Positions 40,233 through 42,896 are shown, counted from the stretch's first letter. The stretch is DNA of 64,000 nt from Vulcanimicrobiota bacterium (GCA_963820825.1 CAWGBN010000006.1:384001-448000), one strand, 5' to 3'. Notes: a model not told the origin generated them from the letters alone. Numbers and translations are program-made.

Positions 40233-41615
40233 CTACACTCCTGATCCGGTAACGGTGGCACGATGCGACATGATTGAAAGGCTCTCTTTGAGGACGCGGC
40301 AGACGTAATCGGCCTCTTCCTCGGTGATCGTCAGCGGCGGCTCGATGCGAATCGTTCGCGCGTTGACCAGCGTTCCGGAGACGAGCACGCCGCGATCGAG
40401 CATGCGTTTGCCGAACTCGAATCCCGTCTCGTGGTCGCGGAACTCGATCGCCATCAAGAGTCCCTTGCCGCGCGCGTCGACGACGAGATCCTCGTGGCCT
40501 GCGATCCCTTCGCGTATCCCGGCGAGCATGCGTTCTCCCATGACGGCGGCGCGTTCGGGAAGGCGGTCTTCGATCAATACGTTGATGGTGGCGAGCGCCG
40601 CGGCGCAGGCGAGCGGATTCCCGCCGAACGTCGACGTGTGCAGGAACGGATTGTCGAAGAGCCGCGAGAAGATCTCGCGCCGTCCGACCACCGCACCGGC
40701 CGGAACGACGCCGCCGCCGAAGGCCTTGGCCAGACACATCAGATCCGGCGCAACGCCGTAGTGCTCGCAGCAGAACATCTTGCCGGTCCGGCCCATTCCG
40801 GTCTGCACTTCGTCGAGAATGAAGAGCGCCCCGAATTCGTCGCAGAGCGCGCGAACGTTCGGCAGATAATCGTCGTCGGGAATATTGACGCCGCCCTCGC
40901 CTTGGATCGGTTCGAGCAGCACCGCGCCGACGTCTTCGCCGACGGCGCGACAGGAGGTCATCATGTCACGAAGTGCCGGGATATCGTTGAATGGAACGTG
41001 CTCGATGTTCGGCAGCATCGGTCCGAACGGGCGCCGGAACTCGGCCTTCGCACTGGCCGAGAGCGAGCCGTAGCTCTTGCCGTGAAATCCTTTGGTTGCG
41101 GCGACGATCGTCTGCTTTGTCGGATCGTACGCCCGTGCGAGCTTGAGCGCACCCTCCACCGCCTCGGTTCCGCTGTTGCAGAAGAAGCTGAACTCGAGAC
41201 CTTCGGGCGTCAGCAGCGCGAGCGCCTTGGCGAGCATCGCGCGAAGCGGGTCGAGCAGGTCTTGGCTGTGGAGCGGCTGGCGCCGAAGCTGATCGCTGAC
41301 GGCTTTGACCACCTTCGGATTGCGATGGCCCACGTTGAAGATGCCGAAACCGCCGAGGCAATCGATGTAGATTCGTCCGTTCAGGTCGCGGTACGAGTTC
41401 GGTCCGGCATCCGCCCACTCGACGACCGCGCTCGCGTTACGCCCGTCGCTTGCCTTGCGGTACTCCAAGAATCCGGGATTGACGTGCTCGCGGAACGACT
41501 CTACCGTCTCGCGCGCGATCCACGCCGCGTCCTCCGGCGTGATCTCGCTCTTTGCGATGAGTTCTAGGACGATCTTCGTATACTCGTATACCTTTTGTTC
41601 TTTCTCACCGGTAAT
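40233..41615 (-). CDS. patA: Putrescine--2-oxoglutarate aminotransferase (non-canonical start; see findings)
   Basis: [82 protein letters not shown], as in E. coli PatA/YgjG. The frame stays open upstream of the track's start (41468) as far as the gabT stop. Confidence 0.9.
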
Positions 41616-41621
41616 TTTCGG

Positions 41622-42896
41622 TCACCTCGTAAAAACGTCGTGCAGACTCTTTTGAAGAATGGCGAGCCCCTCTGAGAGCTCCTCGTCGGTGGCGACGAGC
41701 GGGACGAGAATGCGAATCACGTTGCGCTTGCCGGCCATCAGCAGCAGCAATCCGCGCTCGCGGGCGGCCTCGACGATCTCCGGCGCACCCGAGGATAGCT
41801 CGATCGCAAGCATCGCGCCGAGTCCGCGCACGTCCTCGATCTGCGGAAACTCGCGCTGCATGGCGCGTAGTGCCGAGCCGATGCGCTCTCCCATCGCGCG
41901 GGCGCGCGCCAAGAACGCATCGTCGATCGTCTCGAAGACCTTCAGCGCCGCGGCGCAGGCGACCGGATTTCCGGCGAACGTTCCGCCCAGGCCGCCGGGC
42001 TCCGGCGCGTCCATAATCTCGGATTTTCCGACCACGCCCGCGAGCGGCAGGCCGCCGCCGATCGATTTCGCGACCGCGACGAGATCGGGTTCGATGCCGT
42101 ACTGCTCCGACGCGAAGAACGTGCCGGTGCGGCCGAATCCCGTCTGAATCTCGTCGGCGATCAACAGGATGCCGCGTTCCTCGGTGATGCGCCGCAGCTC
42201 GGGCAAGAAATCGCGCGGCGCCGGTACGAAGCCGCCTTCACCGAGAACCGGCTCGACGATTACGGCGGCGACGCGATCGGGAGCGACCACCGCCGAAAAG
42301 AGCTCGTCCAGGGCCTCGAGCGCGCGAGCCGTCGTCATGCCGTGATGCTCGTACGGAAACGGCGTATGGTAAATCTCGCTGCAGAAGGGTCCGAAGTGCT
42401 GCTTGTACGGCTCGTTCTTCCCCGTCATCGAGAGCGCGAGCAGCGTGCGGCCGTGGTAGCCGTGGGTAAAGGCGACGATTGCGGGACGGCGCGTGTATTC
42501 GCGTGCGATCTTGACCGCGTTCTCGGTCGCTTCGGCTCCGGTCGAGAGCAGCAGCGTCTTTTTCGGCGACGGCCCCGGGGCCCGGCGGTTCAGCTCTTCG
42601 GCGACCCGGACGTACGGTTCGTACATGGCCACTTGAAAGCAGAGGTGCGTGAACCGCGCCGCCTGTTCGGCGATCGCCGCGACAATCTCGGGGTGCGCGT
42701 GTCCGGTATTGAGCGTGCCGATGCCCCCGATAAAGTCCAAGTAGCGGCGGCCGTCCTCGTCCCAAAGGGTCGCGCCGCTCGCGCGCTCGACCCAGATCGG
42801 ATGCGCGGTCGCGACGCCACGCGCGACGCTCTCGCGGCGGCGTTGCGCCAGGGAGCTGTCGGCGACGGGAATTGAGGGTTTTTCGCGTACGGTCAT
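41622..42896 (-). CDS. gabT: 4-aminobutyrate aminotransferase
   Basis: LAQRRRESVARGV, YLDFIGGIG.LNTGH, FTHLCFQV, TGAEATENAVKIAR, YHGRT, EPVLGEGGF, ADEIQTGFGRTG, AKSIGGGLP, PGGLGGTFAGNP. Confidence 0.9.
   Translation of the reverse strand: MTVREKPSIPVADSSLAQRRRESVARGVATAHPIWVERASGATLWDEDGRRYLDFIGGIGTLNTGHAHPEIVAAIAEQAARFTHLCFQVAMYEPYVRVAEELNRRAPGPSPKKTLLLSTGAEATENAVKIAREYTRRPAIVAFTHGYHGRTLLALSMTGKNEPYKQHFGPFCSEIYHTPFPYEHHGMTTARALEALDELFSAVVAPDRVAAVIVEPVLGEGGFVPAPRDFLPELRRITEERGILLIADEIQTGFGRTGTFFASEQYGIEPDLVAVAKSIGGGLPLAGVVGKSEIMDAPEPGGLGGTFAGNPVACAAALKVFETIDDAFLARARAMGERIGSALRAMQREFPQIEDVRGLGAMLAIELSSGAPEIVEAARERGLLLLMAGKRNVIRILVPLVATDEELSEGLAILQKSLHDVFTR

Follow-up and report, generated by a model that had tools for sequence, protein, structure and literature searches.

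The gabT-patA junction

We analyzed a 64,000-nucleotide stretch of DNA (the window) from a Vulcanimicrobiota genome in which a gabT-like gene, patA and an aldehyde dehydrogenase gene follow one another on the minus strand (Table 1). The best NCBIfam matches of the gabT product are all GABA transaminases, and its score against TIGR00700 (503.1) lies just below the cut-off of 506.65. The third gene probably codes for an aminobutyraldehyde dehydrogenase; no family scored above its cut-off in the NCBIfam profile search. A sigma-70-like promoter was looked for and none was found, and terminators showed no excess.

The junction between gabT and patA reads ACG AGG TGA CCG AAA ATT ACC GGT GAG on the minus strand. 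An earlier note on this DNA had reported that patA contains no ATG, GTG or TTG codon before position 41468 and that the gabT stop codon TGA (41624-41622) lies in the patA frame. We confirmed both statements. From 41621 onward the patA frame runs without a stop for 462 codons, until the TAG at 40233, and its first canonical start codon is the TTG at 41468. The ATT, a run of four adenines (A4, 41618-41615), the sequence GAGGTGA and a GTG-initiated upstream open reading frame (uORF) also lie where the note had placed them. The 16S rRNA of the window's genome ends in GAUCACCUCCUUU, and GAGGTGA is complementary to this 3' end over 7 nt, as a Shine-Dalgarno (SD) sequence.

Table 1. Coordinates of genes and sequence elements around the patA start, counted from the first nucleotide of the window
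Feature	Position	Strand	Remarks
gabT-like 4-aminobutyrate aminotransferase	41622..42896	minus	424 aa, ATG start; stop TGA within the patA SD
patA SD, GAGGTGA	41622..41628	minus	6 nt upstream of ATT; aligned spacing 8
AAA just 5' of the start codon	41616..41618	minus	conserved; probably enhances initiation and does not encode Lys
Proposed patA AUU initiation codon	41613..41615	minus	comparative basis
patA CDS	40233..41615	minus	460 aa, predicted putrescine aminotransferase
patA N-terminal 48 codons	41469..41612	minus	missing if the TTG start is used; include the dimer helix of E. coli YgjG
TTG, first canonical codon of the patA frame	41466..41468	minus	internal Leu; begins the truncated 411 aa database entry P0003
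GTG uORF, 6 codons	41605..41625	minus	present; SD by-product; rejected as entry route
Aldehyde dehydrogenase, probable aminobutyraldehyde dehydrogenase	38699..40231	minus	ATG start, 1 nt past the patA stop

We identify the product of the reading frame that begins at 41615 as PatA. The protein matches NCBIfam PRK11522 with 680.6 bits (cut-off 612), in an alignment to the profile that starts at residue 7, and scores 630.7 against TIGR03372, under the cut-off of 658.65. It aligns from query residue 18 to the solved chains of Escherichia coli YgjG (E 4e-173), the extra N-terminal helix and an 11-residue segment included, and the window PatA and E. coli PatA/YgjG are orthologues with 60% identity. 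Putrescine:2-oxoglutarate activity is predicted.

Start codons of patA in related genomes

We gathered patA loci from the genus (placed near Ca. Cybelea by named relatives), family, class (Vulcanimicrobiia/Eremiobacterota, soil bacteria) and phylum of the window. Filtering left 157 loci: 149 from the class, five from other classes of the phylum and three from enterobacteria. Near-duplicates, the unanchored loci L073, L106, L179 and L196, and also L178 and L180, had been left out before the 149 were counted. None of the claims made here depends on the genomes marked as unpublished (G048, G059, G081, G089, G101, G160, G169, G194 and G365). Among the class loci, 113 carry an SD followed by ATT (103) or ATC (10), which we refer to as AUU loci; the SD count is partly true by construction, because a locus was called only if its SD measured at least 4 nt and its start fell inside a position window. 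Another 33 class loci start with ATG, GTG or TTG, and three could not be called. The ATT or ATC sits at codon -46 to -41 from the HVNPG motif in the 113 loci. The canonical starts lie at the matching position, with 30 of the 33 at -48 to -41 and all 33 there or further upstream. Loci of one class are related and hence not independent, so we give the count by genus as well: 32 of 43 genera have AUU only, three are mixed, seven are canonical only and one is uncalled. The 33 class loci that manage without AUU indicate that it is not essential.

The exact junction GAGGTGA-N3-AAA-AT(T/C) occurs in 53 distinct loci, which is far beyond chance. In 80 of the 113 AUU loci, one of the six codons upstream of the start is an in-frame stop. 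A canonical in-frame codon is found within 15 codons upstream in 12 of the 113 and could serve instead; in six of these the codon is a TTG two positions before the start, and four of those six TTGs are too near the SD. An independent metagenome scan listed 80 of 120 patA loci, 67 of them distinct and usable. Class-like loci among the matches listed had ATT in eight cases, ATC in four and a canonical codon in six (ATT/ATC 12/18). On a FastTree phylogeny of 151 proteins, rooted on the enterobacteria and with several weak nodes, the start codon changes nine times, with four additional changes between ATT and ATC. The tree suggests that the AUU start is ancestral, gained once at the base of the class and then lost about eight times. 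All five patA loci from other classes of the phylum start with ATG or GTG.

The earlier note had listed four ways into patA and had proposed an alignment of gabT-patA junctions from relatives. In this comparison the conserved ATT and SD strongly favor the first option, initiation at the AUU at 41615 behind the SD. Another of the four was an error, with one extra A in the A4 run, to which a mutation private to this genome may be added. We checked the A4 run through the relatives; the one DNA sequencing run (share 0.05) has no coverage at the junction. Indels do occur in such assemblies, and locus L017 has one within patA, but the 53 distinct loci share the same junction and the three-adenine form, which would put the GTG of GAGGTGA in frame, is found in 0 of 157. 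We exclude a sequencing error, and an error or private mutation has a negligible probability.

The N-terminal codons of patA

The note had also read the codons upstream of 41468 as the N-terminal region of PatA, and codon-position change rates support this reading. Across 30 Cybelea loci, the N-terminal codons change at a rate of 0.46-0.50 at third positions versus 0.15-0.23 at first and second positions. Since third positions change about twice as often, the segment upstream of the TTG is coding. The codon aligned to this TTG is TTG in only 15 of the 113 AUU loci and CTC in 69. No canonical in-frame codon precedes HVNPG in 67 of the 113, and the others have scattered internal ones. Removing residues 1-30 from YgjG lowers its melting temperature from 81 to 49 C (PMC4244111). 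NCBI-named proteins of relatives begin exactly at the AUU-position codon (MTGEKAQ, MEGERQR, MTHDRER and MLERSTS). The NCBI pipeline thus already picks this codon in relatives, and the window's own entry is a 411 aa stub. Many public gene calls shorten these proteins by 20-60 residues, with loss of the dimer helix.

Frameshifting, readthrough and RNA structure

We considered two kinds of programmed frameshift into patA: a +1 shift out of the gabT frame or, as the note had suggested, out of the GTG uORF, and a -1 shift on A AAA out of a +1-frame ORF, stimulated by the SD. In their favor, a -1-frame GTG or a gabT overlap is present in each of the 30 Cybelea AUU loci, the A4 run is highly conserved, and ATT and ATC both encode Ile. 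However, 35 of the 113 AUU loci, including many whole genera, have neither a -1-frame uORF nor a gabT overlap. Where the uORF occurs, its length and stop vary, and its GTG is simply part of the SD. The P-site codons GAA, GCA and AAU are unable to re-pair one base on, and there is no slippery site. Slippage by -1 on A AAA was rejected as well: only 46 of the 113 loci have a +1-frame start from which the A run can be reached. In some loci a stop codon in the -1 frame lies directly on the A run. A frameshift is very unlikely.

Readthrough of the gabT UGA, by selenocysteine or a near-cognate tRNA, would produce a GabT-PatA fusion. In the window the gabT stop immediately precedes patA in the patA frame, as it does in 53 of the 109 AUU loci with a located gabT, and selA, selB and tRNA-Sec are present. 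Such a fusion is impossible in the other 56. The gabT frame relative to the ATT is 0, 1 or 2 in 58, 17 and 34 loci, and the gabT stop lies anywhere between -112 and +14 nt; with frame and stop both free to vary in this way, we reject readthrough. Where TGA has become TGG (L099 and L205), gabT is in another frame, and the TGA is accounted for as part of the SD. The note had seen no convincing SECIS. An Rfam search of 38000-44000 gave no SECIS-like match; at E<=1 it returned one sub-threshold miRNA match. We regard readthrough as even less probable than a frameshift.

The note had placed the AUU in the loop of a small ACCG/CGGT hairpin. This hairpin can be drawn, but it does not hold up as a conserved structure. 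Pairing of native versus swapped leaders and N-termini in 35 genera gave z values of -1.0, 0.2 and 0.0, and comparison with synonymous recoding gave 0.6 to 1.4. We found no covariation against either control and rejected the hairpin as a selected structure; the A run is simply unpaired. The label "recoding site", which the note had raised as a possibility for the junction, does not apply.

Conservation of the SD, the AAA and the weak codon

We compared the AUU loci with canonical starts in the window's genome, using a rough gene set built for this analysis. An SD of at least 7 nt is present in 60% of the 113 AUU loci versus 3.3% of the canonical starts. The aligned SD spacing is 8 in 62 of the 113 and 10 in one. 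The triplet AAA directly precedes the start in 103 of the 113 AUU loci; among SD-led canonical starts it does so in 5 of 525. The last base of this triplet (position -1) changes only twice on the tree. Six conserved Lys columns of patA are AAG-dominated, with 9-32 tree changes each. Five conserved Ile columns in the body of the gene are all ATC-dominated, and the start is ATT in 103 of 113. These patterns indicate that the ATT and the preceding AAA are conserved as nucleotides and not as Ile and Lys codons.

The 33 canonical-start loci have a different arrangement. None has AAA before the start, 31 have a weaker SD of at most 5 nt, and 22 overlap gabT through NTGA, the commonest way in which lineages gave up AUU. 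The loci behave as if the combination of a strong codon with a strong SD were avoided. Among four-fold degenerate sites, 0 of 90 lack G/non-G changes, and the median is 19.5 changes. The SD, the AAA and AT(T/C) are the sole constants across the AUU loci. This comparison shows both the position of the start site and purifying selection on it.

The lineage might instead simply tolerate near-cognate starts, with the patA AUU as a frozen accident that has no special role. The window's genome does contain a mild excess of SD-led in-frame near-cognate codons (CTG 36 versus 24 expected, ATT 21 versus 15, ATA 12 versus 7), although this is small beside that of ATG (151 versus 39). The gene mtnA starts with ATA or ATT in 3 of 17 Cybelea genomes (L217 and L439 were excluded from the mtnA and speD tables). 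On account of this patchy distribution, we rejected mtnA as another polyamine-linked gene with a non-canonical start throughout the class. Tolerance does not account for the 33 canonical loci, none of which shows an in-place change from AAA-ATT to AAA-ATG even though G/non-G changes are common at neutral sites. Nor does it fit gabT, for which a canonical start is available in 109 of 110 anchored loci, or the intact IF3 with its own weak start. We consider it unlikely that the patA AUU is an accident of this kind.

Initiation background and proposed mechanism

IF3 discriminates against AUU, AUC and AUA and not against NUG codons (PMC4611024). In one reporter survey, AUU, AUC and AUA yielded 1-2% of AUG (10.1101/063800). 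Another reported a quarter to an eighth of AUG, with re-initiation doubling output (PMC3592434), and near-cognate sites with a long SD in Staphylococcus aureus reached about 10% of AUG (PMC13009471). Immature 30S subunits relax the start-codon check (PMC6868393). The initiation apparatus appears to be ordinary. IF3 aligns over its full length to solved IF3s, tRNA-fMet is typical, and of 30 infC loci from the class, 29 start with ATA, ATT or ATC. A DEAD-box helicase of the class also has an ATC or ATT start, in 11 of 11 anchored loci among 20. All 96 relatives that could be anchored at the aldehyde dehydrogenase offer an ATG as its start (53 were not anchored).

We consider it very probable that patA is translated by SD-led initiation at the AUU at 41615, and propose that the weak codon is kept because it probably caps PatA below its operon neighbors. 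The long SD and the unpaired A-rich stretch would position the 30S subunit, and fMet-tRNA would read AUU (AUC in a few lineages) to give the 460 aa protein. Ribosomes that terminate gabT inside the SD may contribute re-initiation, which would not be required. Discrimination by IF3 would limit the yield to about 1-25% of that from AUG. PatA would then be made well below the gabT product and the aldehyde dehydrogenase, at a level that tracks initiation stringency. Selection would keep the weak codon and thereby restrain the committed first step of putrescine degradation; the same cells also draw on putrescine to make spermidine. We infer the use of AUU in vivo, the low PatA output and the reason for it.

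Comparison with known near-cognate starts

The patA start resembles those of E. coli infC (IF3) and pcnB, which are also SD-led AUU codons (PMC4447247, PMC3592434, PMC4611024). In those genes AUU keeps output low and IF3 discriminates against it, properties that probably extend to patA. The infC start closely follows an upstream stop (UAA GGU AUU; PMC3592434), as in patA. Unlike infC and pcnB, patA codes for a metabolic enzyme outside the translation and RNA-decay machinery, so any feedback would be indirect, and it has a conserved AAA before the start codon.

Lineage-conserved near-cognate starts with a long SD are also known from S. aureus cvfC1 (AUU) and ccpN (AUA), the latter responsive to medium (PMC13009471), from Enterococcus faecalis ebpA (AUU; PMC4447247) and from Deinococcus dnaA (AUC). 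These four were demonstrated experimentally, whereas the patA start is known from comparison and belongs to another gene family and phylum. E. coli patA (ygjG) has a conserved weak start, UUG, at nearly the same position as the AUU of the window. IF3 treats UUG, but not AUU, as canonical (PMC4611024). The N-degron pathway further limits the level of E. coli PatA (10.1101/2021.07.26.453911), and its gene lies outside any gabT-patA-aldehyde dehydrogenase operon, unlike that of the window.

Only a small number of bacterial AUU starts have been confirmed; the majority belong to genes for translation or RNA decay or are restricted to one genus. A search of mostly open-access literature found no paper on an AUU-started patA or on start codons in the phylum; genome-wide start-codon tables could list it. 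From the sequence comparison, we classify the patA AUU as a deeply conserved addition to starts of the infC, pcnB, ebpA and ccpN type, placed on a catabolic enzyme, and not as recoding.

A possible link to polyamines

Unusual translation is found in eukaryotic genes of polyamine metabolism, as in patA: AZIN1 is controlled by an AUU-initiated uORF and antizyme by a +1 frameshift. Unlike in these genes, the patA AUU starts the main reading frame, and we saw no sign of a uORF peptide or frameshift.

We asked whether the AUU could in addition act as a polyamine sensor, with putrescine or spermidine raising initiation so that the substrate induces its catabolic enzyme at the level of translation. 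Such a role would add to AUU initiation as the best explanation of the locus. Polyamines enhance initiation at UUG and GUG in E. coli (PMC4405209, PMC7177335). The class 2 members of the polyamine modulon (cya, cra, spoT, uvrY, frr and gshA) combine an inefficient start with a normally placed SD, a layout comparable to that of patA, whose AUU is predicted to be inefficient. The class 1 arrangement, an SD at least 10 nt from the start, differs from patA, in which GAGGTGA lies 6 nt away. All modulon members listed in the two papers start with UUG or GUG; AUU appears there 0 times, and the 20 listed members do not include E. coli patA. Passages of PMC8674398 deal with argA, not patA.

The distribution of weak starts points both ways. 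In E. coli, Salmonella and Enterobacter, patA starts with TTG. The metagenome matches listed include 37 enterobacteria-like loci, of which 36 have this TTG start and the remaining one has an indel. The E. coli patA region is present in 5422 of 5426 E. coli genomes. Outside both groups, however, patA starts with ATG or GTG in 10 of 12 metagenome loci among the matches listed, as it does in all five loci from other classes of the phylum. speD, which leads into the other putrescine-consuming route, starts with TTG in 22 of 24 anchored class loci (30 examined), often with the SD about 10 nt away. SpeD is biosynthetic, so the logic cuts both ways. The other conserved non-canonical starts of the class, those of infC and the DEAD-box helicase, are not in polyamine genes, and we found no conserved RNA structure on which polyamines could act. 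The window's genome does encode speD, speE, an arginase-family protein and an Orn/Lys/Arg decarboxylase; this genome, which is 85% complete, yielded neither an agmatine deiminase (PF04371) nor PF13416, and no homospermidine synthase of the PF16653 type. The AUA of ccpN offers a precedent for a metabolic response, from 10 to 30% (PMC13009471).

Polyamine sensing by the patA start is thus plausible, though on balance we hold it to be doubtful. We are equally tentative about a broader version, in which start-codon stringency would serve as a polyamine gauge on the putrescine-consuming enzymes PatA (AUU in Vulcanimicrobiia and, independently, UUG in enterobacteria) and SpeD (UUG in Vulcanimicrobiia), allowing more translation when polyamines accumulate or when IF3 proofreading relaxes. 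If true, this would be a bacterial feedback loop that matches the logic of eukaryotic antizyme and AZIN1, and PatA would join IF3 and the DEAD-box helicase in a small "initiation-fidelity regulon". The retention of the AUU start in 35 of the 43 sampled genera, together with the UUG start of enterobacteria, suggests a specific translational constraint on PatA dose.

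Non-canonical start codons elsewhere in the genome and class

At nearly all infC loci examined in the class Vulcanimicrobiia, the start codon is non-canonical. Among 30 infC loci, one of which was mis-anchored, translation starts at ATA in 17, which belong to the window's family, at ATT in 11 from the sister family, and at ATC in one. The DEAD-box helicase gene of G000, the genome carrying the window, contains no canonical start in its first ~94 codons. The equivalent place in its relatives is ATC or ATT at all 11 anchored loci (20 loci in the set), and three helicase loci share the CC AAA ATT context found at patA. 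mtnA seemingly starts with ATA or ATT in 3 of 17 Cybelea genomes; most other mtnA loci have a canonical start. From the G000 sequence alone, we identified further genes in which no canonical codon lies close to where coding begins; ATT or CTG are the candidate starts.

Features in the window and in G000 (C, contigs of G000; L, loci collected for comparison)
Feature	Location	Strand	Remarks
infC	C6:47403	+	L246-L275
DEAD-box helicase	C8:632990-634183	+	L416-L435
mtnA (methionine salvage)	C2:58822	-	also L400, L408
speD	C8:138381	-	L436-L465
Candidate ATT/CTG start	C5:77360	+
Candidate ATT/CTG start	C6:372433	-
Candidate ATT/CTG start	C8:213690	-
Candidate ATT/CTG start	C3:98384	-
Candidate ATT/CTG start	C1:27862	-
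TonB-dependent-receptor-like gene, flavin amine oxidoreductase	window 42945-48073	+	divergent from gabT-patA
selA, selB, tRNA-Sec	window 35853-37187 and 48082-49944 (+); C6:467130		flank gabT-patA region
Second class III aminotransferase	window 28990-30324	-	PRK06062 subfamily, above cut-off
tRNA-Arg(ccg), ARAGORN call	window 40655-40740	-	inside patA

The gabT-patA neighbourhood and patA in other bacteria

The divergent TonB-dependent-receptor-like and oxidoreductase genes possibly serve amine uptake and oxidation. We found no link between selA, selB or tRNA-Sec and the patA junction. The second aminotransferase lies 10 kb from patA, and the tRNA-Arg call is probably spurious. Two relatives carry anomalous patA loci, a 1-nt indel in the N-terminus (L017) and a gabT frame that continues through patA (L093); both are probably assembly errors.

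In enterobacterial patA (L211-L213 and the enterobacteria-like loci of the metagenome scan), the TTG start is immediately preceded by an in-frame ATT, sometimes replaced by ATC or ACT, in the arrangement GGAG N3 ATT TTG.

Of the 24 class speD loci that could be anchored, 22 also start with TTG, and the distance between SD and start is often ~10 nt. These speD leaders resemble those of the polyamine modulon, the E. coli genes with polyamine-stimulated translation.
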